Origin: a phage | Direction: 5' to 3' (one strand) | Sequence record: PZ386964.1 | Length of the DNA: 64,000 nt | In this document: positions 1-44,521 of the stretch, piece by piece | Layout of the letters: each line of letters starts with the position of its first letter | Position numbering within the stretch: position 1 is the stretch's first letter | Notes under the pieces: model-generated | Database searches by the model: none | Told to the model about the DNA's origin: nothing | The model's input: the letters and a program-made list of their open reading frames with translations, nothing else | Position numbers and translations under genes: made by a program

Positions 1-515
1 TACATGACACCTTTGCGGTCCTTGATGTCTTCGTAGGCCGCTTGCGCACAGTCGGATAAGCGAAGGCCATAATCATGAGCTACGCCGGAAAGGTAATCGA
101 CTGCGACCATGATGGTGACATCAATATCCATGCTCTGATTTTTAGCAATGGCGTCACCAAGCCGTCCGAGAGTCTTTGCCAAGCGAAGGATAAACGAGTG
201 AGGGTGGGTACCTTTGTCAGCGCAACCGCCGCCGTTGATGTCTTCGATTTTTGCACCATTTTGCGCGGCAAGGATAGTCAATACAACAAGACAATCACCA
301 ATGTCGTCCTTGATTGCGGCCTGCAGGTCACAGATGGCCTGCTCTGTATATCCAATTTCAGGGTCAAAGAACACAAGGTCATGGAGTTGATCAACGTGGT
401 CGGTTAACTCCCCAAACTCGCTGATAAGCTTCGGGTATTGGTCCTTAAGGTCGCAACCTTGGATGATGTTACGGTCAGAAGCCCACTGGCGAATGTTTGC
501 ATAAATCTGTTTCAT
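1..515 (-). CDS. MazG-like nucleoside triphosphate pyrophosphohydrolase (partial; start codon in window, 3' end runs off window start)
   Basis: Open frame on minus strand from ATG at 515-513 to position 1 (translated by hand, no stops): MKQIYANIRQWASDRN...LISEFGELTDHV...KDDIGDCLVVL; EExxE and acidic-helix motifs typical of all-alpha MazG-type NTP-PPases. Not in the ORF track because no in-window stop. ATGA overlap with upstream gene stop. Confidence 0.5.
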   Translation of the reverse strand, partial: MKQIYANIRQWASDRNIIQGCDLKDQYPKLISEFGELTDHVDQLHDLVFFDPEIGYTEQAICDLQAAIKDDIGDCLVVLTILAAQNGAKIEDINGGGCADKGTHPHSFILRLAKTLGRLGDAIAKNQSMDIDVTIMVAVDYLSGVAHDYGLRLSDCAQAAYEDIKDRKGVM

Positions 516-1030
516 TTATTTTCCTTTGATGCATTGAATTGATCGATTTTTATTTTAGCCTGATTATAAGTATCAATCAAGCTATTAACTTTATCTTTTA
601 ATCGGTTTGTTTCTGCGGCGAACTGAACAAGAAATCTGACATCTTCTTCTGATAGTCCACAGTTTCCTTCTGGGATAGAGAGGCGTCCAGTGGTCGCAGA
701 GTCGGGCACACTCCTGAGTAACTCACGGGAGCAGCTGAGTTGCTCGCGCAACTTGATATTCCCAGACTTGTAACGAGCAATAGTGTCATCAGCAACCAGT
801 TGCGCTTCCTGGCGACCTTTCTCATATGCCGATGCCGATTCAACCTGTAAAGATGCAATTTGCTCTTCGAGTGCATTTATCTTGTCCTTACGCTCATTAA
901 GCGATGTCAGATATTGGTTATCCTTGGCCAGTGATGCGTTGGTTTGCTGCAGGTCTTCAACGTATGATCCAGCGGCAAACGCGCCAACAAGGGCCATAAT
1001 CTTCAGGAGTGGTACAATTCTTTCTATCAT
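512..1030 (-). CDS. i-spanin (Rz-like): N-terminal membrane anchor plus periplasmic coiled coil
   Basis: 172 aa; N-terminal hydrophobic segment LLKIMALVGAFAAG followed by long coiled-coil-like region; contains a fully embedded out-of-frame lipoprotein ORF, the classic Rz/Rz1 architecture. Confidence 0.6.
   Translation of the reverse strand: MIERIVPLLKIMALVGAFAAGSYVEDLQQTNASLAKDNQYLTSLNERKDKINALEEQIASLQVESASAYEKGRQEAQLVADDTIARYKSGNIKLREQLSCSRELLRSVPDSATTGRLSIPEGNCGLSEEDVRFLVQFAAETNRLKDKVNSLIDTYNQAKIKIDQFNASKENK
598..825 (-). CDS. o-spanin (Rz1-like outer-membrane lipoprotein), embedded in the i-spanin gene in another frame
   Basis: Internal Met at 825 gives MRKVARKRNWLLMTLLLVTSLGISSC...: positively charged n-region, hydrophobic core and lipobox I-S-S-C; mature part short and Pro/Ser-containing. 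Confidence 0.5.
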   Translation of the reverse strand: MRKVARKRNWLLMTLLLVTSLGISSCASNSAAPVSYSGVCPTLRPLDASLSQKETVDYQKKMSDFLFSSPQKQTD

Positions 1031-1087
1031 GATGCACCAGATAAATAAAAGGCCGCCAATCGGCAGCCTTGTTGATTTGATTGTCGA

Positions 1088-1948
1088 TTAAAACTCTTCT
1101 GCGTCGGTCGGAGTTTCATTAACAGGGCCAGCGGCACCGCTTGCTTCTTCCTGCTTGCTGCGGTCAATGTTAACGTTGCCGCCAACTACATCGTTGTGGA
1201 ATGCTTTGGCGACTTCATACAGACCTTTGTCCTGCACCAGACCTTCCAGCTCAAACTTCAGAACTGACCAGGTGTTGCCATCTTTGGACTGAGACGCAGT
1301 ACCCATGCGAACGATGTTCATGAAGGTCGGCGGAGTTTTCAGGCCCTGCGGAGTCTGAACTTTCTTCTGCTGCAGCGCGGTCATCAGCATGCGAGACGGC
1401 TTGATCATGGAAGAAGTCAGAGACAGCATTGCGCTACCAAATTCACCAGTTTCTTCGTTCAACAGAATCACGAAGTGGTTACGTGTATCTGCGTAGTAAG
1501 GTGATTTCTTCTCGTGCACCTTGCCGTTCTCGTCTGGCACAAACACCTTACCGTTGATTTCAACAGCGCGGCCTGCTGCGACTTCTGCATCAACGTGCTC
1601 TTTGGTGAATTCACCTTTAAAGCCTTTATCGTCGGACTCGCGACCGCCCCAAAGGATGAAGGTGCGTTTGAATGCGCAGGGGATGATCTGCACACCTTTC
1701 TTGCCGTCATACAATTCACCAGTAACGGTGTTGTACAACATGCCAGCTTTTGCGCCAGGAACGTGTTTTGGATCATCTTCGTCGACCATCGGAGACATCT
1801 TTTGCAGCACGACGATAAAAGGAATGGCATAAGCGTCGGCATCGGCACCTTCAAAGCCAGCGCCAAAATCGGTCATGTCGACAAAATCAGCCATAGCGGA
1901 CATCTGGGTGTTTTTCACTGCAACTTCGGTAGTTTCTTTCTTAGACAT
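1088..1948 (-). CDS. hypothetical protein; possible ssDNA-binding protein (acidic C-terminal tail ending ...TDAEEF)
   Basis: 286 aa ORF; acidic C-terminus ending in Phe resembles the tails of T7 gp2.5 and bacterial SSB; sits in replication module. Function is inference. Confidence 0.3.
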   Translation of the reverse strand: MSKKETTEVAVKNTQMSAMADFVDMTDFGAGFEGADADAYAIPFIVVLQKMSPMVDEDDPKHVPGAKAGMLYNTVTGELYDGKKGVQIIPCAFKRTFILWGGRESDDKGFKGEFTKEHVDAEVAAGRAVEINGKVFVPDENGKVHEKKSPYYADTRNHFVILLNEETGEFGSAMLSLTSSMIKPSRMLMTALQQKKVQTPQGLKTPPTFMNIVRMGTASQSKDGNTWSVLKFELEGLVQDKGLYEVAKAFHNDVVGGNVNIDRSKQEEASGAAGPVNETPTDAEEF

Positions 1949-2007
1949 TTGATGTTTTCCTATAGTATCAAGTTTCGTGGCAACCTGATTTCAAGATAAA
2001 GGTTAAA

Positions 2008-2565
2008 TTACTTTTTGCTTTTAGGCAAGGTTATTTTAGCTTCTTTATACTCAAAAACGCTAATATCTTCACTAACTGGATTACCCGCTTCCAGCTGTTC
2101 TTTTACAAATGACTTCAGTGTAGCAGAATGAATGCCTTGTTTCAACGTGGCTTCAACACCATCTTCACGCAGCGCGGCAACAATCTCTTGCGCTTGCTCG
2201 ATTTCTTCGCGACCGAACTCAGCCGTGACGCTGGACTTGATCAAGCCGCCGTAACCGTTGTTGACAAGCCAATCGAATACCTTCAATTCATTTTCTTTCT
2301 TGATTGAAGCATTTACTTTTGACTCGACCTTGATTTTGGTCTTGTCTTCAAGCTTGATTTCGGACACGCCAAGCTCATCCATAACGCCAGGAAGCAGAAC
2401 AGTTTTGATTTCACTGATGCGCTGCTTTTGCATATCAGCTTCATCTTCAAGCTCTGTCAAAGCTTCTTGGCGCTCTGCCAATTCCGATACTAAGCGCGCA
2501 AGACGCTCCTGAATGCTCTCAGGAGCAACCTGCGGCAAATCATCTTCCCAATTAATATTGCTCAT
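2008..2565 (-). CDS. hypothetical protein (coiled-coil N-terminus)
   Basis: 185 aa ORF, ATGA overlap with the upstream gene, same strand as neighbours. Confidence 0.5.
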   Translation of the reverse strand: MSNINWEDDLPQVAPESIQERLARLVSELAERQEALTELEDEADMQKQRISEIKTVLLPGVMDELGVSEIKLEDKTKIKVESKVNASIKKENELKVFDWLVNNGYGGLIKSSVTAEFGREEIEQAQEIVAALREDGVEATLKQGIHSATLKSFVKEQLEAGNPVSEDISVFEYKEAKITLPKSKK

Positions 2566-2825
2566 ATTTTACCTTCTTGCATTAGCCCTTCAACACGGGT
2601 CATTTGATAACGTTCAGGTTTCCAAGCCGCCAAAGCCTTCTCAGCGCCTTTTAAAGTCTTATATGCCTTGATGCCAGGCATAATGACGGTATTCACCCCA
2701 GCACCGTTGCCATAATCAAACTCTTTTACAACGCGGAACATGCCGTCAATTTCTTTGACCAAAAGACGTTTGAACGCGATTGCGCCAGTAGCTTCATTTT
2801 TGTAACGTTCAAGGATGCGTACCAT
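2562..2825 (-). CDS. hypothetical protein
   Basis: 87 aa ORF in operon context. Confidence 0.4.
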   Translation of the reverse strand: MVRILERYKNEATGAIAFKRLLVKEIDGMFRVVKEFDYGNGAGVNTVIMPGIKAYKTLKGAEKALAAWKPERYQMTRVEGLMQEGKI

Positions 2826-2901
2826 TTTGTATTCCTCTATTTCGTTTCGATGAAGTAATTATGACTCATCTTCCGTGACAAGTCAAATTATTTTTTTGAT
2901 A

Positions 2902-4425
2902 TTAATTCATCTTTTTGCCGTCGAGGATGTGATCAGCAAGCATTGACTTCATACTGAGTGAACGCTGAATTTCTTCGTCGATGGTATCAACACCAATAAA
3001 ATCAACATACAACACGCTTGATTTGGTGCCGATGCGGTGATTTCGGTCTTCGGATTGTTTGCGCAGCTCGTTGTCGTAGTTGCAAGAATAATAAATTGCC
3101 AAGTCAGCGGCGGTAAGCGTGATTCCGATGCCTGCCGCGGCTGCGTGACACACCAACACTTGCGTTCCACCGTTCTCGACTGTGTTTTTCTGGAAGTCAT
3201 CAATCAAGAACTCGCGCTGCTCTTTTGATGTTTCACCGTTGTACACACCAGTGACCACGCCTTCAGACTCAAGCCAGTCCTTAATCTGGTTCATCTCTTC
3301 CTTAAAGATGGCCCAAACAATGAATTTGCGCTCTGGGTCGTCTTCCAGCACCCCTTCCACATAATCCTTAAAGGCTGTGAATCGTGGGTTGTCTTCCATG
3401 TAGACCATCTCATCATACACCTTAACAAAGCCTGATGTCACCTGCTTCATCTTGGTGCGAGATGCGATCATCTCAAACTTAACGTTTTCTTCTTCGCCTT
3501 TATACTCCATCAGATAATTGTACTCATTCTTGAGTTCATCATAGACATCGCGCTGCTTAGGCGACAACTCGAAGTCGATAAACTTGTACACCTTCTCTGG
3601 AAGGTCCGGCAGGTATTCCGCTTTTGTCGCGCGGAAATAGTGCGGCTCCATCAGCCGGATAAGCTTGTCAAGGTTTTTGTACATCGGTCGGCCAAACTGG
3701 TCTTTGCGCGGCACTTGCGGAATGCCATAACCGTTGCCGCCGATTTTCTTGAGAATGGCCTGCATCTCTGGGTCGTGCGCTTCAAGCAGCACTGTAAATT
3801 CAGAGTTAAATGCGCGGAACGATTTGGTGCCAAGCAAACCTGCTTCAAGGAAGTGATACTGCATGTAAATATCAGCAGGCGAGCGCGGCAGCGGCGTACC
3901 GGAAAGGATTCGACGGGCCTTTGCCAGCCGTCCCAATTCCACAACCTTGATGGAGCGTTTGGCTGTGTTATTTTTGATACGCGTCGATTCATCAATGATC
4001 ATCAAACAGCGGTACTTCTTCAGTACGGACTCAATGTGTTGATAACCGACTGGCGTGTTCACCGTGTCAATGTTGAATGAGAAGATTCGTGCAGGCACTT
4101 CGCCTTCAGGATAGTGATCAGCAAACATCTTCTCCCAAAGTGCCTTGCCCTTTTTAGTTTTCATTTTGTCATTGCCGCGCCAGTAATGACCAATCCATTT
4201 AATGGAAAGGTGCTCTGGTGCTTCACGACGAATCCAGTTTGAGTGTACACCGTTAGGAGCGATTACAACCATGGCATCAAATGCGCCAGCGGTAAAATGC
4301 TTTTCAAACTCTGCCAAAGCGGTCCAGGTTTTGCCAAGACCCTGCTCCATGAAATAAGCAAAGTATTTTCTGCGGCCTGCTTTATCAAGCGCCAATAATT
4401 GGTGGCGCATTCCTTGTGTTTTCAT
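2902..4425 (-). CDS. SNF2-family (SF2) helicase/ATPase
   Basis: 507 aa; Walker A-like GLGKT, DEST-type motif II (MIIDESTRIKN), C-terminal helicase motifs. Confidence 0.7.
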   Translation of the reverse strand: MKTQGMRHQLLALDKAGRRKYFAYFMEQGLGKTWTALAEFEKHFTAGAFDAMVVIAPNGVHSNWIRREAPEHLSIKWIGHYWRGNDKMKTKKGKALWEKMFADHYPEGEVPARIFSFNIDTVNTPVGYQHIESVLKKYRCLMIIDESTRIKNNTAKRSIKVVELGRLAKARRILSGTPLPRSPADIYMQYHFLEAGLLGTKSFRAFNSEFTVLLEAHDPEMQAILKKIGGNGYGIPQVPRKDQFGRPMYKNLDKLIRLMEPHYFRATKAEYLPDLPEKVYKFIDFELSPKQRDVYDELKNEYNYLMEYKGEEENVKFEMIASRTKMKQVTSGFVKVYDEMVYMEDNPRFTAFKDYVEGVLEDDPERKFIVWAIFKEEMNQIKDWLESEGVVTGVYNGETSKEQREFLIDDFQKNTVENGGTQVLVCHAAAAGIGITLTAADLAIYYSCNYDNELRKQSEDRNHRIGTKSSVLYVDFIGVDTIDEEIQRSLSMKSMLADHILDGKKMN

Positions 4426-27479: not shown

Positions 27480-28015
27480 TGGGCGGCTTTTGGCGTAAAG
27501 CGAAATACTCTAAAGAGTTGCATTACTTCTTAAAAGATGAAGGCATAAGCATTTGCGGCAGGTATAAAAGGGATGGCAATTCAACTTTGCAAATTGACAA
27601 GAAGGCCGATTGGTTGCTCAAGGAAGAGTGCACCGTTTGCCGCGAGCGTTTAGATAGAAAAGTGAAAACGGTTGACTACATAAAGGAGCTTCAAAGCAGG
27701 TGCAAAAGTCCGCAGGAGTTCGCCATTGCTCTTTGGGGTGATCACCCTGAATTAAGAAAGGAATGGTTAAAGACTGATGCGATCAACTCTATTTTTAAAA
27801 TGAAGTATATGACTACCGCCAGATATAAAATGGAAAAATCAGTCATTAAGAAGGTATTATCTTATTGGAGGGATACGGTTGACATTGTAAAAATAAAGAA
27901 ATACCAAAAGGAAGTATTGCTGGAATTGGAAAGGATTGGTTATAAAGTCACCAATAAAATGATAGAGGAAGAGATAAAAAGACGGACTGACAAAGGATTG
28001 ATGCCTAAATTGTAG
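27476..28015 (+). CDS. hypothetical protein (Cys-containing, Lys-rich)
   Basis: 179 aa ORF, last gene of the rightward early block. Confidence 0.45.
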   Translation: MMGGFWRKAKYSKELHYFLKDEGISICGRYKRDGNSTLQIDKKADWLLKEECTVCRERLDRKVKTVDYIKELQSRCKSPQEFAIALWGDHPELRKEWLKTDAINSIFKMKYMTTARYKMEKSVIKKVLSYWRDTVDIVKIKKYQKEVLLELERIGYKVTNKMIEEEIKRRTDKGLMPKL

Positions 28016-28119
28016 CTAATAAACGGACGCTGCTTTACGTGTTTTGAATAATGGGATGTGTACAATGGGTCGCTTTATGCGGCCTTTTGTCGTTTTTGTT
28101 GGAAATTTTGAAGTGAGTG

Positions 28120-28710
28120 GCGTGGACCGTGGTGGTTTGAGGCTTGGTTGATACGTATGGAATTTAGGATATTGTGGATGAAAATAATAAATAAAATGGA
28201 AATTTGTATTTATTTTTGGAGTATGAGCATTTGATTTTGGATTTTAGTGTGCGGATTTTGGAGAGTGAACCGTGGTGTGTGGTGGCGAAAGCCGCGCCGT
28301 GCCTGGATTCTATGGTTGAAGAGTACACTCTTACGGATAGGTTTTTATCCGTATCATGGCGCTAGGGTGCGCCGCGCCTGGATTTGTACACTGAATCTTA
28401 CGGATGATACGGATGATACGCCATTTTTCCTTATTGTAACCAGAATTATTTCAAAAATTAATTAACTCCATTTTGAATTAATTTAAATTAATTTTTTCTA
28501 CATCCTCATACTTATGTTAATTTATATATTTAACGTATTATCCGTAAGATATAAGTAAAAACAAAGACTTGCGGCAATACGGATGATACGTCATGATACG
28601 CTTCAACCAGCCAACTGCGGCTAAGTCATTGATTTGCATAACAAGCGGCGAAAGGGATGGATTTCTTTTATACGTATCAAACAGTACACCACGCACCACG
28701 GTCCGTTATC
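28120..28710. repeat. iteron-rich, AT-rich noncoding region 1
   Basis: Multiple copies of ACGGATGATACG / CGTATCATCCGTA in both orientations (about 28329-28358, 28396-28422, 28545-28557, 28575-28601); GATTTTGGA x3 at about 28241-28260; GGACCGTGGTG at 28124/28267 and its reverse complement at about 28687-28704; AT-rich core 28440-28540. Confidence 0.6.
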
Positions 28711-28765
28711 CATTCAGCACTATGATTTGTGTACGTTTATAGCCATAATGAACATCAATCTGCAC

Positions 28766-28794
28766 TTGAATATAATGTCCATCCATTGTATAAT
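28766..28794 (+). promoter_or_regulatory. sigma70-like promoter
   Basis: TTGAAT -17- TATAAT upstream of the gene starting at 28830. Confidence 0.4.
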
Positions 28795-28829
28795 TCACAC
28801 TATTAATTTGCACTATGGGATTTTGCACT

Positions 28830-29303
28830 ATGAGTCAAGATTATGTAGCGATGCCTGAAGACTTTGAAGACCCGCGATTTGCAGAGCACAATCAGGCTTT
28901 ATTCGATGAGTTCATTGACCTTGTTATTCAGGGCCATGACATGCGCGCAGCTTTTGCACTAGTATTTGGAATGGAAGTTGCAACGGATAACTACACTGGC
29001 CAGCGAATCCTTTGCGCGCAACGCAATCCATACTACAAGATGCGCTTCAAAAAGCGTATGGAAGAGATGCCACTCAAGGATTTGTGGAGCGTAAAAGGTG
29101 CAATTCACAATTTGGTCAAGCTTGTGCGTGATCCAGAAGTCGCGGCATCAGCCAAGCTTAATGCTATTCGTGAACTGAATATCATCTACGGCATCACGAT
29201 GATTGATGAAAACGGCAATAGTAAAATGGGCCGTTCTATGGACGATTTCTACAAGGATTTTGGAGAGGCGGCCAAAGAAGGTGAGCAATTCTCCCGCCAC
29301 TAG
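28830..29303 (+). CDS. hypothetical helix-rich protein; candidate DNA-binding protein (small-terminase-like or regulator)
   Basis: 157 aa from ATG 28830; start codon lies inside a copy of the TTTGCACTATG motif; helix-rich sequence FIDLVIQGHDMRAAFALVFG, KLNAIRELNIIYGI. Function is inference. Confidence 0.45.
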   Translation: MSQDYVAMPEDFEDPRFAEHNQALFDEFIDLVIQGHDMRAAFALVFGMEVATDNYTGQRILCAQRNPYYKMRFKKRMEEMPLKDLWSVKGAIHNLVKLVRDPEVAASAKLNAIRELNIIYGITMIDENGNSKMGRSMDDFYKDFGEAAKEGEQFSRH

Positions 29304-29417
29304 CCAATTTGCACTATAAAACGGCCCTAGAACACATTTTCTCCACTTCTAGGGCCATCGGTAATACGACGGGGAAGGTTACAACCATAAACGCGTTAGA
29401 AAGTGTATTATTATAAG

Positions 29418-29681
29418 TCATCTTTTAGTCACTTTCCGTAACAATTTACGACCTTCAACCGTCCAATCGAACGACTCCACCAGCAGATTTGCACCATAAC
29501 CCAAGACGATGCGCCCTTTCTCGTTATCGACCCGCCAACAAGTCTCGAATAGCATTCGATTTGCACTATTAACTATTGCCGCAACGCGCGTTGGGTAAGC
29601 GCAATTTGCACTATGGTCATAAAGGGATAAGGTGCGACCACTTCCGATGGACAACGTAGCAATGAGAATAAGCGTATTCAT
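29418..29681 (-). CDS. hypothetical protein
   Basis: 87 aa ORF; contains three antisense copies of the 11-mer motif, so coding status is uncertain. Confidence 0.3.
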   Translation of the reverse strand: MNTLILIATLSIGSGRTLSLYDHSANCAYPTRVAAIVNSANRMLFETCWRVDNEKGRIVLGYGANLLVESFDWTVEGRKLLRKVTKR

Positions 29682-29731
29682 AAGCCACCAATTTGCACTA
29701 TGAAAAGCGACCCCGAAGGGCCGCCATTCAA

Positions 29732-30358
29732 TTAGATGATTTGGAATGTGTAGGATTTATTACCGAACTCGAAGTTCAAGCGCCCAGCTTCCTTAAGCTT
29801 CATGCGGAAGCGAATATGCTTGCTATCCGGTAGGCCCAGCGCGGCGAACGCTACGCGGACCGATTTGAACTCTCCTACACCCTCGACCATAACGCCGTTA
29901 CGGGTGAGACGCTTTTGCGCCACTTCCTTATTGTCCCAACTTTTTGCAATGCCTTCGCTATTCGAACGGCGATGGGAAGGAGTTCCATTTTGCACTACGC
30001 AATTTGCACTATCGTTTAAACCGCTCTTAACGAAGGCTTCATACTCTTCGTCGGTCATCGCGTCGAGTTCTTCCTGAGTCGGCTCGGCCTTTTTAACTAC
30101 CGCACGCGCCTTATGCGTTTTTACATCGCTGGACACTTCCTCGCGCGGCTTCGCGTCGGGGATGGGCGATTCGTTGGACGGCTCATCGAGCGCGTTTAAG
30201 GACTCGATTAACGCGATTACGCGAGTCTCGGCGGTCCGGCGGTCCGCAAACTTCTTAATCGGCTTCGAACCGGAATTTGCATTATAAAATGCAACGAGGT
30301 CGGCGGTCTTAGTTGCGATAACGTCGCCGCTAGTCGAGAAACGATTTAAGCTAACCAT
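29732..30358 (-). CDS. hypothetical protein
   Basis: 208 aa ORF with protein-like composition; contains three antisense copies of the motif. Confidence 0.4.
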   Translation of the reverse strand: MVSLNRFSTSGDVIATKTADLVAFYNANSGSKPIKKFADRRTAETRVIALIESLNALDEPSNESPIPDAKPREEVSSDVKTHKARAVVKKAEPTQEELDAMTDEEYEAFVKSGLNDSANCVVQNGTPSHRRSNSEGIAKSWDNKEVAQKRLTRNGVMVEGVGEFKSVRVAFAALGLPDSKHIRFRMKLKEAGRLNFEFGNKSYTFQII

Positions 30359-30438
30359 AATAAACTCCTATTTGTTAGGGCGCTAGGCGCGAAAGAATTT
30401 TATTAAAGCGCCGCGCACGACGCTCTAAAAATCCTCTC

Positions 30439-30723
30439 TTACGCTTCGACGAGGGAGAAGGTCTCAAATTCTTCTTCGCCCATAACGAGTAAGATATTAC
30501 CGATTTCGACCGCTTCGAAGAAGTATCCGTTAACGTTTACTTCGAAGGCTTCGCGGTCCGATTCCGGTAGCGCCGCGTAAAGTTTAAAAGCCTCGGCGAC
30601 CGTTACCCCACCCGCCTCGATAGTTTGGTCTACGTTCGCGGCGTAGACTTCGGATAAATTTTGTTTAACGCCGTAGTTCTCGACGATAGCGTTACGAATA
30701 GAAGAAACGTTAAGAATAGCCAT
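30439..30723 (-). CDS. small acidic hypothetical protein (cassette A; paralog of 31358-31648)
   Basis: 94 aa; N-terminus AILNVSSIRNAIVE..VYAANVDQTIE aligns with ITLAAIRNARAE..VYLFNVDATIEE of cassette B; homologous promoter, 5'-UTR hairpin and RBS. Confidence 0.5.
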   Translation of the reverse strand: MAILNVSSIRNAIVENYGVKQNLSEVYAANVDQTIEAGGVTVAEAFKLYAALPESDREAFEVNVNGYFFEAVEIGNILLVMGEEEFETFSLVEA

Positions 30724-30740
30724 TTTAAACTCCTAGTTGG

Positions 30741-30770
30741 GAGAGGCGTTAACGACCTATTCGTTAACTC
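30741..30770 (-). promoter_or_regulatory. 5'-UTR stem-loop of cassette A (GUUAACGA-AUAGG-UCGUUAAC)
   Basis: Minus-strand reading gagTTAACGAataggTCGTTAAcgcctc; homologous to the cassette B hairpin with two compensatory base-pair changes; followed by CCAACTAGGAG RBS. Confidence 0.55.
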
Positions 30771-30791
30771 ATCCCGTCCCGATATGAGTAC

Positions 30792-30819
30792 ATTATAATA
30801 TAGTGTAGAAAAAAGTAAA
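30792..30819 (-). promoter_or_regulatory. sigma70-like promoter of cassette A (minus strand)
   Basis: Minus-strand TTTACT -16- TATAAT, preceded by CGAAAAAGTGCTTTACT shared with cassette B. Confidence 0.45.
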
Positions 30820-30862
30820 GCACTTTTTCGATAAAAATGAGATAAATTATTTTATCTTTTTC

Positions 30863-30890
30863 TTTACTTCTTCGTACACTCGCATATACT
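30863..30890 (+). promoter_or_regulatory. sigma70-like promoter of middle gene (cassette C), divergent from cassette A promoter
   Basis: TTTACT -16- TATACT with shared TTTACTTCTTCGTACACT and TTTATATCGAGA elements. Confidence 0.45.
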
Positions 30891-30946
30891 TGTTTATATC
30901 GAGACGGGCGATGTCCCTTCCTTCTACTAGCATCGGGAGCTTTATT

Positions 30947-31249
30947 ATGACTACTTTAATCTCTTCCATCCTTACTTACGACGAAGACCGCTTAACCGTT
31001 CGCTCTCTTATCGCCGCCGTTAACGCGGAACTAGAATCTAGCGCCATTAAGGTCCGCGCGGTCGCCTTCATCGGCCTTTCCTTCGACGATATGAAGTATG
31101 CCGAACGTAGCGCTATCCGCTTCGCGAAGACCGACGACGAAGCCGTTACCCTTATCGAGACGGTTACGCCGCGCGGCGAAGCGTTAATTATCGTCGAGTA
31201 TATCGACGTAGAAGGCGATAAGGCTTATAAATATTTTATCGCAGAATAA
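30947..31249 (+). CDS. small acidic hypothetical protein (cassette C)
   Basis: Start at MTTLISSILTYDEDRL... with RBS GGGAG; the ORF-track N-terminal extension overlaps the promoter. Confidence 0.45.
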   Translation: MTTLISSILTYDEDRLTVRSLIAAVNAELESSAIKVRAVAFIGLSFDDMKYAERSAIRFAKTDDEAVTLIETVTPRGEALIIVEYIDVEGDKAYKYFIAE

Positions 31250-31260
31250 CGAAAAAGTGC

Positions 31261-31289
31261 TTTACTTCTTCGTACACTAAGACTATAAT
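31261..31289 (+). promoter_or_regulatory. sigma70-like promoter of cassette B
   Basis: TTTACT -17- TATAAT; upstream CGAAAAAGTGCTTTACT is the reverse complement of 30812-30830. Confidence 0.45.
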
Positions 31290-31310
31290 GTTTTATATCG
31301 AGAGGGGGAT

Positions 31311-31336
31311 GAGGTAGCGAATAGGTCGCTACCCTC
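31311..31336 (+). promoter_or_regulatory. 5'-UTR stem-loop of cassette B (GGUAGCGA-AUAGG-UCGCUACC)
   Basis: gagGTAGCGAataggTCGCTACcctc; same loop AUAGG as cassette A, stem differs at two positions with compensatory partner changes; followed by CCAACTAGGAG RBS and ATG 31358. Confidence 0.55.
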
Positions 31337-31357
31337 CCGACCAACTAGGAGATTATT

Positions 31358-31648
31358 ATGATTACTTTAGCCGCTATCCGTAACGCTCGCGCCGAAACTT
31401 CCGAAAACTCTAACGTATTTGGCGAAAAACTTAAAAACGTTTATCTCTTTAACGTAGATGCGACTATCGAGGAGCTTCATAGTCCTATCGATTTTAGCGA
31501 ATTTACGGAACTCGAAGAGGAAGATATTTCTACCTTCCGCGTTACTATCGAAGGCAAGGTTTATTTTGCTACGGAGTTCGGCGGCGAATATCTCGCGGTA
31601 TCCGAAGGCGAAGGCCGTTACTCTTTCTTTAAAATCGTCTCCTTATAA
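31358..31648 (+). CDS. small acidic hypothetical protein (cassette B; paralog of 30439-30723)
   Basis: 96 aa; paralogous to cassette A protein; followed by a strong terminator. Confidence 0.5.
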   Translation: MITLAAIRNARAETSENSNVFGEKLKNVYLFNVDATIEELHSPIDFSEFTELEEEDISTFRVTIEGKVYFATEFGGEYLAVSEGEGRYSFFKIVSL

Positions 31649-31668
31649 TACCCTTCCGTTATTAATAG

Positions 31669-31693
31669 GCCGCGCTTAGTCGCGGCTTTTCTT
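31669..31693 (+). terminator. rho-independent terminator
   Basis: GCCGCG-CTTAGT-CGCGGC hairpin followed by TTTTCTT. Confidence 0.65.
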
Positions 31694-31813
31694 CGTCCCT
31701 ATCTCGATGCGCTTCTCCGCGAAAACTCCTTTATCCTTCCCTTCTTCGTCGCATAATCTTCATCGAGATGCGCCTTAGTTCGCATAACAGGTATTACGTT
31801 AAATGGAGAACAT

Positions 31814-32078
31814 CGCGTAAGTCCTTGTTTTATATAGACACCTATATCGGACCGTTAGGGCGGGTCGCGTAAGTCGTTGTTTTATAAAGGCGCAAAACTT
31901 TCCCTTCGTTCCGAACTAAAACGAGAAATATGCCGACCCTTCGCCGGAAAATAGTACGCATGCGAAATTACATGCATCTAGAATAATCCCCACCGATATT
32001 ATCCTACACGCAATCATTCGCTTTCGAATCATTATGCTTCATATTATTATGCGTCGAATCATTCGCTTTCGAATTGTA
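31814..32078. repeat. noncoding repeat block: 23-bp direct repeats and two copies of an imperfect palindrome
   Basis: CGCGTAAGTC(C/G)TTGTTTTATA at about 31814 and 31866; AATCATTCGCTTTCGAAT at about 32012 and 32057; further GAATTTGCAGTACACT copies at about 32164 and 32261. Confidence 0.5.
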
Positions 32079-32347
32079 ACGCTGGAAACTGTAACGTCGA
32101 TTGATTATTGCGTTCGTGTGGTTTTTATGGCATGGGTCTTTTGGTGCGTTTTGCTACTTGATGGAATTTGCAGTACACTAATCAAAATACGACACATTTG
32201 GTCCACTAACTTTTCAAAGAAAAAGTCCTAGACAGTACCGTACTATTTTGTACCCACAGGAAATTTGCAGTACACTCCTGTGCGGCAGGCAAAATAAAGG
32301 GCCGCACCAAGCGACCCACGATTCACGGTTAAATCAACAAGCACCCA

Positions 32348-32728
32348 CTATTCACTCTTATGGGCATCACCAAAGCCATCCGCAATCTGGCTGATCAGCG
32401 ATTCAATGGACACAGTTTTACCAATTGATCGAGCGGTAATAGCAAGCATATTATCAATCAAACCGCGATTGACTTCACATGTTCCAGGCTTTGATTCATC
32501 TCCAGGACAACCAAAAAGCTGGTCGCGCAAACTTTCGAGGGAACGCTCAATATTTTCCAGCTTCTCTTCTAAATCGGATTGGCGACGTAAAACCCATGTT
32601 AAGTCGCGGTTGCCGACTTCCAATCCATTATAATCGCAAGATGGAACGTCAATTTTGATACTGGAACCAAAAGCAGTACCGCTGCCTTTAGTATATGTGT
32701 GGCTAATAGAATCATTTTTATTTGACAT
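32348..32728 (-). CDS. hypothetical protein (last gene of tail-fibre operon)
   Basis: Start at internal MSNKNDSISHTY... (RBS AAAGGT); the longer ORF-track start would include a small hairpin. Confidence 0.4.
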   Translation of the reverse strand: MSNKNDSISHTYTKGSGTAFGSSIKIDVPSCDYNGLEVGNRDLTWVLRRQSDLEEKLENIERSLESLRDQLFGCPGDESKPGTCEVNRGLIDNMLAITARSIGKTVSIESLISQIADGFGDAHKSE

Positions 32729-37627: not shown

Positions 37628-39088
37628 ATGAATAAAATATTAACACATAATTGGAAATTCATGTACCAGTTGAATCCTGCTTTAAAAGAAGTCTGGAAGA
37701 CAAAAGCGCGATACAAAGTAATATACGGCGGTCGTGCATCTTCCAAATCGCACGATGCCGCTGGTTTTGCTATTTATTTGGCGGCAAACTTCAAATTAAA
37801 ATTCCTTTGCGTTCGACAATTCCAGAACAAGATTTCTGAATCTGTATATACTCTATTAAAAGATAAAATAGAGATTTCTGATTTTAAAGATGAGTTCAAT
37901 TTATTAAAGAACTCTATCGAGCATAAAAGAACTAAATCTGAATTTCTATTTTACGGTATCGCACGTAACGTTGATGAAATTAAATCAACGGAAGGCGTTG
38001 ATGTTCTTTGGCTGGAAGAAGCGCACGCACTTACTGAAGAACAGTGGGACATTATTGAGCCGACAATCCGTAAAGAAGGGTCAGAAATATGGATCATCTT
38101 TAACCCTGATGAAGAGGCCGATTTCGTCTACCAAAACTTTGTTATGCGACCGCCGAAGAATGCCATAGTTAAAAAGATAAACTGGCAAGACAACCCATTC
38201 TTGTCGCAAACAATGCTGGATGTTATCGCAGGCATGTACGAGCGCGACCCGAAAAAGGCAGAGCACGTTTATGGCGGCGTGCCGAAGACTGGTGGCGATA
38301 AATCTGTAATCAACCGTGCATTCGTTAAGGCCGCGCTAAATCTCCACAAACATCCTACGCTGGGGTGGAGTTTGTCAGGGTCCAACCGTATAGGCTTTGA
38401 CGTAGCGGACGATGGCGACGACCTTAACGCCACTGCATTCGTCACAGGAAACGTATTGCGCGGCATCAAGACGTGGGAAGGTCTGGAAGATGAATTGTTG
38501 AAATCGGCAAGCGGAGTTTGGAAAGATGCGCTTACATTTGGCGCTTCTATAACTTATGACGCCATCGGTGTCGGCGCTTTTGCTGGTTCAAAATTTGATG
38601 AACTGAACGAGTATGCAATACATGAAAATCCATCATTTCCAAGAATCGAATTTAATGCGTTCAATGCGCAAGGGTCTGTTGATGATCCTGATGACGTTTT
38701 TCTTGAATTACCACACGTTGAAATACTCAATAAAGACCATTTCGCAAACATAAAAGCGCAAAAGTGGACTGAAATTGCAGAGAGATTCAGAAAGACATAC
38801 GAATATGCAACTGGGCAAGCCGTATATCCGACTGATGAATTGATTTCAATCGACACCGATGGCATACCGGAACTTGGGATTCCAGCTTGGACTACTGAAG
38901 AGATTGAGACGTTTCTTTTTGAGATGTCAGCGCCGCGCAAAGACACTTCTGTTCTTGGCAAGTTCAAAGTTGAATCCAAAAAGGATATGGCAAAGCGTGG
39001 AGTCAAATCACCTAACAAAGCGGACGCAGCAATCATGGCATTGATGAAACCAATCGTTGCAGCATCCGGCTTCTTCTCTAACCTTTAA
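37628..39088 (+). CDS. terL: terminase large subunit
   Basis: 486 aa; Walker A VIYGGRASSKSH, Walker B-like DVLWLEEAH, C-terminal nuclease-like region with acidic residues. No obvious RBS before ATG 37628, so start is uncertain. Confidence 0.7.
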   Translation: MNKILTHNWKFMYQLNPALKEVWKTKARYKVIYGGRASSKSHDAAGFAIYLAANFKLKFLCVRQFQNKISESVYTLLKDKIEISDFKDEFNLLKNSIEHKRTKSEFLFYGIARNVDEIKSTEGVDVLWLEEAHALTEEQWDIIEPTIRKEGSEIWIIFNPDEEADFVYQNFVMRPPKNAIVKKINWQDNPFLSQTMLDVIAGMYERDPKKAEHVYGGVPKTGGDKSVINRAFVKAALNLHKHPTLGWSLSGSNRIGFDVADDGDDLNATAFVTGNVLRGIKTWEGLEDELLKSASGVWKDALTFGASITYDAIGVGAFAGSKFDELNEYAIHENPSFPRIEFNAFNAQGSVDDPDDVFLELPHVEILNKDHFANIKAQKWTEIAERFRKTYEYATGQAVYPTDELISIDTDGIPELGIPAWTTEEIETFLFEMSAPRKDTSVLGKFKVESKKDMAKRGVKSPNKADAAIMALMKPIVAASGFFSNL

Positions 39089-44211: not shown

Positions 44212-44253
44212 ATCGCCTGGCAATGGATTGCCGCAGGATTTTACGCGTATAAT

Positions 44254-44521
44254 GACGTATCATCCGTATCAAGTAAGTAGTTGTTTTCGAAAGAATCTTA
44301 CGGGTGATACGGATGATACGCGTTGCCGCGATACTTTATAGGAATTCAAATAAATTAATTTAAAATTATATATCTAATTTAATTTTATTTTTTTATAAAC
44401 TCTTATATATGAAAAGTATCCGTATCATCCGTATCATCCGTAGCACACCAGTGATAGCGCGGCTTATACACCGATACGGATAAAAATACGCCTCATTTTA
44501 TCCGTATCATCCGTATCACAC
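44254..44521. repeat. iteron-rich, AT-rich noncoding region 2 (same 9-bp unit as region 1)
   Basis: CCGTATCAT units: 44254-44273, 44297-44322 (inverted), tandem copies 44416-44444 and 44496-44521, degenerate copy 44471-44492; AT-rich core 44340-44410. Confidence 0.6.

Follow-up and report, generated by a model that had tools for sequence, protein, structure and literature searches.

The terS locus and its repeat array

The stretch of DNA analysed here (the window) comprises 64,000 nucleotides of sequence record PZ386964.1 and comes from a phage of the genus Wifcevirus, an E. coli myophage that is a distant relative of the Pseudomonas PB1-like phages; the genus has been described as virulent. 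The element in question is an array of short direct repeats, all in one orientation, that surrounds the gene for the small terminase subunit (terS, 28830-29303, plus strand) and runs on through two genes of the opposite strand, one encoding a protein of 87 amino acids (aa) and the other, an early gene at 29732-30358, a protein of 208 aa (phrog_4730). All of these features lie within a direct terminal repeat (DTR) of about 3.7 kb (28470-32141, plus strand), which is present once in the collapsed assembly; its first position, 28470, corresponds to the physical left terminus of virion DNA. The terL gene (37628-39088) was recognized by its match to PF04466 (Terminase_3, E=3e-37). It has no terS adjoining it, as a sequence-only reading of this DNA had remarked; the small-subunit gene lies 8.3 kb away.

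That reading described the product of 28830-29303 as a helix-rich protein to be compared with TerS, and the comparison identified it as such. A phmmer search aligned residues 3-147 with the solved TerS of phage E217 (PDB ID: 7UXE, E=7.3e-34, 41% identity), and the open reading frame (ORF) also matched phrog_4783 (E=8.6e-75). An AlphaFold model (pLDDT 73.6) predicts helices at residues 22-33, 38-46, 56-65, 67-79, 88-100 and 106-119 followed by two strands, that is, the N-terminal helical domain, long oligomerisation helices and short C-terminal beta element of a TerS fold. The best PDB match to the model was 7uxe_A (Foldseek E=1.4e-5), the next being the TerS proteins of PaP3 and NV1, and the orthologue in phage Mansfield carries a TerS annotation. 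By sequence, predicted fold and the presence of a partner TerL, the protein is a small terminase of the E217/Pbunavirus type.

The array was quantified by counting its core across the window. Exact copies of TTTGCACTAT number seven, all on the plus strand and all within 28807-30012, against 0.31 expected (maximum of 2 in 100 shuffles). Allowing up to one mismatch gives 12 matches, 11 of them on the plus strand within 28807-30285 and a lone outlier at 250; this total is unremarkable by itself (12 versus 6.3 expected), and what is remarkable is the clustering and the single orientation. The shorter word TTGCACTA occurs nine times in 28470-30700 and nowhere else in the 64 kb on either strand (p~1e-16, unbiased strand-specific k-mer test). 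Sequence reading and pattern search reproduced all ten motif positions listed in the sequence-only reading, together with their plus-strand orientation and their clustering. Its 11-mer unit (a 14-mer in its title) had to be revised: in a position matrix built from 61 sites of six genomes, the conserved unit is the 12-mer (A/G)ATTTGCACTA(T/C), that is, (A/G)A-T-T/C-T/C-G-C-A-C-T-A-(T/C), and the flanks carry no information. Spacing between copies is irregular (10-486 bp, median 87 bp). We found no helical phasing, with no periodicity at 10-11.5 bp; weak spacing signals at 13 and 15 bp have p values of 0.02-0.05, uncorrected for multiple tests. Relative to the terS ATG, the core of the array extends from -113 to +865 (~1 kb) and the full array up to +1446 (~1.5 kb). 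An origin by chance or as a by-product of coding is excluded by these statistics and by the conservation across lineages described below; the array is a genuine cis-element, strongly non-random and conserved in the clade, that lies at the genome's packaging end.

Every copy lies on the plus strand. The first, ATTCAGCACTAT (28712-28723), has a weak 5' half and is found 113 bp 5' of the terS ATG in 7 of 12 Wifcevirus genomes, with an orthologous copy at -112 in the metagenomic contig L025. A weak copy, AATCTGCACTTG, follows at 28757. Sigma70-like promoters at 28749-28794 place the next two copies on the terS transcription start, 5' untranslated region (UTR) and start codon: AATTTGCACTAT at 28805-28816 lies directly 3' of a sigma70-like -10 element, the next G completing an ATG at 28815, and ATTTTGCACTAT at 28820-28831 overlaps the terS start codon at 28830. 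These two copies (cores at 28807 and 28822) thus both end in an ATG, which bears out the overlap with alternative start codons noted from the sequence. Inside terS, at +126, lies CTTTTGCACTAG (28951-28962, core TTTTGCACTAG at 28953), which is present in 12 of 12 Wifcevirus genomes and at +126 in L025 as well. A second AATTTGCACTAT (29306-29317) begins 3 bp past the terS stop codon and is followed by a bidirectional terminator hairpin. Three copies lie inside the minus-strand 87-aa gene, namely GATTTGCACCAT (29486-29497), where other Wifcevirus genomes read ...GCACTAT, GATTTGCACTAT (29558-29569), whose reverse complement encodes the invariant N-S-A residues of the protein, and a further AATTTGCACTAT (29603-29614). 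The core array closes with AATTTGCACTAT at 29690-29701, in the gap that separates the 208-aa gene from the 87-aa gene. Accessory copies inside the 208-aa gene comprise ATTTTGCACTAC and AATTTGCACTAT, 14 bp apart (29987-30012), and the variant AATTTGCATTAT (30274-30285). The minus-strand ORFs within which the sequence-only reading had placed copies are both real genes; neither the conserved 87-aa protein nor the 208-aa protein has a Pfam or PDB match.

Conservation of the array

Within the genus, 12 of 12 Wifcevirus genomes have the core copies between -20 and +865. The 208-aa gene exists in the genus as two strongly divergent alleles, and the one in ECML-117 and Eco4M-7 lacks all three accessory copies.

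Beyond the genus, the core rATYYGCACTAy forms plus-strand-only arrays of 7-14 copies round terS in seven other lineages, namely Pantoea phage Kyle and six contigs from metagenomes, whose TerS proteins are 42-68% identical to the Wifcevirus TerS here. Kyle (Kylevirus, DTR 1-3603, TerS 42% identical) has 14 copies of GCACTA at 477-1478 on the plus strand with the consensus aTT[TC]GCACTA[CT]; over its 69.6 kb the hexamer occurs 19 times on the plus and 11 times on the minus strand, and the cluster is significant genome-wide (p=7e-18). The contigs, again with plus-strand copies, are L025 (TerS 68% identical, 10 copies), L026 (51%, 9 copies), L027 (47%, 7 copies), L028 (54%, 11 copies), L150 (43%, 13 copies) and L151 (52%, 9 copies), the last two with none on the minus strand. 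Copies span approximately -110 to +1200 from the terS ATG in every array lineage, and the minus strand within the arrays holds 0 of ~80 sites across the 8 lineages. Motif, orientation and location thus persist in lineages where TerS itself is only 42-68% identical, which upholds the sequence-only proposal of a recognition site conserved at the nucleotide level across coding and noncoding DNA. Individual copies are only partly orthologous between lineages and turn over; selection therefore maintains the array and not particular positions. Some copies are written into coding sequence of one strand or the other, as in the N-S-A of the 87-aa protein and in the H-Y-P-P-A tail of TerS in Kyle and L026.

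No GCACTA array was found round terS in LMA2 (Pbunavirus), XcP1 (Xanthomonas), Maja (Burkholderia), Gekk3-15 (Aeromonas), Hera and MTx (Serratia) or the contigs L152-L154, and the array-free relatives examined carry just small lineage-specific repeats. The TerS proteins of L152-L154 are 42-44% identical to the Wifcevirus protein here, about as distant as that of Kyle, yet these loci lack the array. The two groups differ at the end of the predicted TerS helix 3, which reads [QKR]-R-NPYY in the array-bearing clade versus E-x-NP in the others (E-S-NPYY in E217). When array presence or absence was predicted from this signature before the DNA was read, the prediction was right at 5 of 5 new loci, L152-L154 among them. 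The Myosmarvirus phage MTx carries AACCCA nine times on the plus strand in the initial 1.7 kb of its DTR (69-1678), against 13 on the plus and 7 on the minus strand in the next 48 kb, a weak enrichment; this set may be an analogous array with a different word. Searches of IMG/VR with TerS returned only Wifcevirus and Kyle themselves, and a scan of IMG/VR for TTGCACTA-N4-34-TTGCACTA gave just chance pairs and Ala/Leu-rich coding tandem repeats (L095, L059, L092, L032 and L081), none with a TerS homologue.

Genome ends and border signals

Comparison of the motif with the genome termini, also suggested by the sequence-only reading, was possible through two independently finished relatives. Position 1 of both Mansfield, whose ends come from PhageTerm, and WFC, whose record contains both terminal repeats, maps to 28470, just outside the array. 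The right DTR border falls at 32141 according to Mansfield (its 3673) and at 32222 according to the end of the WFC record. The array fills the left third of the DTR, with its first copies 243-337 bp inside the left end, and terS begins 360 bp from that end.

The left end itself coincides with the dyad centre (~28472) of an AT-rich palindrome (28440-28500) flanked by inverted TACGGATGATACG repeats, which occur in direct and inverted orientation over 28329-28603. The same architecture, with eight copies, recurs at 44245-44520 in an intergenic region before a DUF2213 head gene (44628), and no genome end forms at this module (44.25-44.52 kb). Because it recurs there without a genome end, the TACGGATGATACG/AT-rich module alone cannot specify the end; what distinguishes the left-end copy from the 44-kb copy is the GCACTA array. 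The TACGGATGATACG/AT-rich modules look like an origin or late-promoter module, and lineage-specific versions of them were seen in L025-L028 and Kyle.

A different set of boxes marks the right border. The box AATTTGCAGTACACTAATCA (32165-32184, plus strand) starts 24 bp past the right DTR border as given by Mansfield, and a second right-end box, AATTTGCAGTACACT, lies at 32262-32276 on the plus strand; the AATTTGCAGTACACT boxes (32165 and 32262) have a 5' half in common with the array motif. In Kyle, AATTTCACAGTACACTAATCAG (3627-3648) likewise starts 24 bp past the DTR end, and in MTx GATTTCACAC (3587-3596) lies 21 bp past it. These boxes, placed 21-24 bp past the right DTR border in three genera, are probably part of the right-end cutting signal. 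The word AGTACAC is found on the plus strand at 28322 (148 bp outside the left end), 28683-28689 (213 bp inside), 32172 and 32269. It is rare, and 4 of the 5 occurrences in the window, as well as 3 of 6 in Kyle (183, 205 and 3635), lie within 250 bp of a DTR border; a binomial estimate made after the pattern was seen gives ~3e-7 for the window and ~6e-5 for Kyle.

Several further observations concern the terminal repeat. Chi complements (CCACCAGC) cluster on the plus strand within the initial 1-2 kb of the DTR in Kyle (253-1970), L026 (323-1824), L028 (411-1836), L150, L151 and MTx (179-1276), and in Kyle this region holds 9 of the 15 Chi complements of the genome (p=3e-13). Wifcevirus has one Chi complement there, TCCACCAGC at 29476, which precedes the array copy at 29486-29497 and is fused to it. 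Near-identical terminator hairpins at 28066-28088 and 32296-32318 (arms 87% complementary), on opposite strands, bracket the DTR as if insulating it from outside transcription. Long inverted and direct repeats (30721-30775/31306-31360 and 30862-30880/31260-31278) duplicate the promoter and 5' regions of small DTR genes, and a TTTACT-N16/17-TATAAT promoter-like unit occurs three times within these duplicated regions. Public read sets and E. coli/Salmonella assemblies (Logan/ENA) contain hundreds of near-identical ~68-kb Wifcevirus contigs, and many Logan/ENA contigs of ~3.2-4.4 kb look like separately assembled terminal repeats. Outside the DTR, the portal protein (PF06381, 39874-42282) carries a C-terminal inorganic-pyrophosphatase-like domain (PF18823, E=2.8e-46).

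Candidate readers of the array

TerS-binding sites composed of short repeats, located within terS or beside it, are established for lambda (cosB, bound by Nu1) and for the pac sites of SPP1, P1 and P22. In pac phages, repeated short boxes in or beside terS nucleate the terminase (review PMC9611059). The array has the corresponding placement, lying beside the DNA end where packaging starts and in or adjoining terS, and it is unique in the window. We therefore favor, at about even chances, a reading in which the array is an expanded, one-directional recognition site for the phage's own TerS at the left end of the DTR, a counterpart of lambda cosB or of SPP1 and P1 pac; it probably marks the left end and sets the direction of packaging. 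Pac repeats for a small terminase were one candidate of the sequence-only reading, and circumstantial evidence agrees with that idea, in that the gene encodes TerS, the array lies inside the left end and DTR, and terL is 8.3 kb off; the array is, however, far longer than any known pac or cosB site.

We infer that TerS reads the motif, that its binding directs cutting and the direction of packaging, and that TerS regulates its own synthesis. TerS would form a ring oligomer whose N-terminal helix-turn-helix domains bind the asymmetric rATTTGCACTAy. Since every copy has the same direction and is located on the right-hand side of the cut at 28470, bound TerS would identify that side of the concatemer junction as where the genome begins and would pass the DNA to TerL for the left-end cut and rightward translocation. 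In Wifcevirus, L025, L026/L028 and L027, copies over the terS promoter, 5' UTR and start codon may also let TerS limit its own synthesis. Such autoregulation would fit the dose sensitivity reported for TerS (review PMC9611059).

Of the known systems, lambda cosB is similar in that short repeated TerS-type sites (R1-R3, bound by gpNu1, the lambda TerS; putative here) lie on one side of an end-forming cut, by or overlapping terS, and in that the left end is followed by terS as its first gene, at ~190 bp in lambda and 360 bp here. One-sided placement gives the direction of packaging at cosB, and the array is placed in the same way. However, cosB consists of three 16-bp sites of mixed orientation in ~120 bp with a site for IHF, whereas the arrays have 10-14 12-mers in one orientation over 1-1.5 kb, through terS and two opposite-strand genes, and the ends are 3.7-kb direct repeats here versus 12-nt cohesive ends in lambda. 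The pac sites of SPP1 (pacL/pacR, G1P), P1 (seven TGATCA/G hexamers, PacA) and P22/Sf6 (inside terS) resemble the array in being short boxes in or beside terS that are unique per genome. They span only ~22-270 bp, compared with 1-1.5 kb, and SPP1, P1 and P22 package by headful from pac and have permuted genomes, whereas the array clade has fixed ends with a long DTR; the boxes of P1 and SPP1 flank the cut on both sides, while the array copies are all on one side. Phage T7, like Wifcevirus, is a DTR phage with short repeats near its terminal repeat (pacB, SRL/SRR) that are implicated in concatemer processing, but its repeat is 160 bp, its short repeats lie outside that repeat and have no TerS-site assignment, and the proteins are unrelated. 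E217 and the other Pbunavirus phages have a homologous TerS of the same fold (a decamer in E217) and, as here, a terS far from terL; LMA2 lacks the array. Pbunavirus packages by headful and has permuted genomes without fixed ends. For E217 TerS, no appreciable DNA binding was seen in vitro (review PMC9611059). The array thus resembles cosB and pac sites in position, uniqueness and association with terS and lacks their compactness, which suggests a variant of such sites and not a member.

Several points weigh against recognition by TerS. Known sites are compact (tens to ~300 bp), and the array occupies 1-1.5 kb with irregular, unphased spacing. The motif is near-invariant while TerS diverges to 42% identity, which needs either a very conserved recognition surface or another reader, for example, a host factor. 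Because the array-bearing TerS proteins are monophyletic, the correlation with the helix-3 signature represents one evolutionary event and is not independent evidence. Myosmarvirus, the sister group, has the same layout, with a 3.56-kb DTR and terS 377 bp from the left end, yet lacks the motif. The left-end cut site is flanked more closely by the other repeat, TACGGATGATACG. Lastly, among Wifcevirus genomes the motif columns vary somewhat less than the surrounding ones (7.3% versus 11.4% variable), but the difference is not significant (p~0.14-0.2); divergence among these genomes is too low for extra constraint to show.

An alternative is that the array is an operator or roadblock for a phage protein other than TerS. 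When occupied, the sites would silence terS or the convergent early genes (87-aa and 208-aa proteins) at the switch from early to late expression, or would shield the DNA end that enters first. The copies at 28805-28831 overlie the terS start codon directly 3' of the sigma70-like promoters, the corresponding place in L025 has three copies in tandem, and two early genes of the opposite strand lie under the array; the neighboring genes without assigned function may include a DNA-binding protein. An operator, one of the suggestions of the sequence-only reading, fits only the copies, two or three in number, that some lineages have over the terS promoter and start codon; there are none at this place in the Kyle subclade (Kyle, L150 and L151), where the first copies lie at +120 to +270. 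The divergent promoter region expected to drive the early genes (30724-30946) contains no copies, and operators do not usually keep to one orientation across 1 kb. The 87-aa and 208-aa proteins are also encoded in genomes without the array, the latter being conserved in array-free relatives. On balance we regard an operator as unlikely.

Another rival is a polar signal read by a translocating machine. Such a machine could be the packaging motor as it traverses the DTR a second time, where the array, like a multi-copy cosQ, would arm the right-border cut, or a helicase-nuclease of host or phage entering from the left, by analogy with Chi. The absolute purity of orientation is as expected for such a signal, the copies are dispersed and unphased, as for sites met successively, and one half of the motif, AATTTGCA, recurs in the right-end box. 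In Kyle, L026, L028, L150 and L151, Chi complements are interleaved with the motif, sometimes fused to it, and oriented for RecBCD arriving from the left. Against this, known polar signals are spread over whole replicons and not over 1 kb, and the terminase is the sole candidate reader. Chi (GCTGGTGG) resembles the array in its strict single orientation relative to a DNA end, and true Chi complements are co-located and co-oriented with the array in sister lineages, but single orientation is the only property shared, as the sequence of the motif is different and confined to 1.5 kb (~1 kb for the core), and no known nuclease reads it. To our knowledge, the motif matches neither Chi, KOPS nor any other polar signal. 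We consider it quite improbable that the array is not a fixed docking site but a new kind of polar signal of long-DTR phages, read serially by a terminase motor that re-enters the repeat as a packaging round ends or by an end-entering helicase-nuclease. Were this true, copy number and direction would determine where the 3.7-kb repeat ends, its duplication or the survival of the first-entering end, and the array would be the first sequence element shown to govern the formation of a long direct terminal repeat.

Replication-origin iterons, bound by a phage initiator or helicase loader, are a still weaker candidate. Direct repeats in coding DNA have a precedent in the lambda origin within gene O, an AT-rich element lies nearby (28440-28500), and terS follows primase/helicase genes in more distant relatives. 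However, that AT-rich element is flanked by TACGGATGATACG instead and recurs at 44.25-44.52 kb, which makes the TACGGATGATACG module the better origin candidate. Iterons are regularly spaced and 17-22 bp long, in contrast to units of 12 bp at irregular spacings of 10-486 bp; the VapE-like helicase gene is 9 kb away, and the replication genes are conserved in array-free relatives. An origin function of the array is therefore very unlikely.

Hardly any weight falls on an element acting as RNA, in which an RNA-binding protein or endoribonuclease would target AUUUGCACUAU on a late transcript running rightward or the complementary sequence on early mRNAs running leftward. Several copies do lie in transcribed regions, one a few nt 5' of the ribosome-binding site of the 87-aa gene and two on the terS 5' UTR and start codon. 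Yet copies at -113 (window) and at -112 and -72 (L025) are upstream of the predicted terS promoter, RNA from either strand would carry just part of the array in sense, and the flanks have no conserved structure; Rfam gave no match at E<=1 in 27800-32600.

A promoter family, sigma70 or phage-specific, was rejected, as there is no conserved -35 element or spacing, most copies lie inside opposite-strand genes and none is upstream of structural genes, not one of which carries the motif. The partition or centromere-like site (parC/parS) entertained in the sequence-only reading found no support, since neighboring ORFs have no Par-type Pfam or PHROG matches and the genus is described as virulent. We know of no convincing match of the motif to the consensus sites of IHF, Fis, DnaA, MarA/SoxS (marbox) or Tus.

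In the literature searched, the motif string appears in unrelated papers alone (primers and the like), and it goes unmentioned in the papers on Wifcevirus, Mansfield and MyoSmar. How small terminases recognize viral DNA is still poorly understood, and no DNA target is known for the E217/PB1 TerS family (review PMC9611059). Under the favored reading, in which TerS recognizes the array, this would be the first candidate DNA target for that family, which includes widely used therapeutic Pseudomonas phages. The fixed-end relatives offer a precise, conserved 12-base candidate and a natural series of 7-14 copies across eight lineages. The array would also be a candidate packaging signal for engineering Wifcevirus-based transducing particles. 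The conserved boxes at both borders of the 3.7-kb repeat offer a starting point for learning what defines long DTRs, about which little is known for such phages, and the clade as a whole may set sequence-specific DTR packaging against non-specific headful packaging carried out with homologous proteins.

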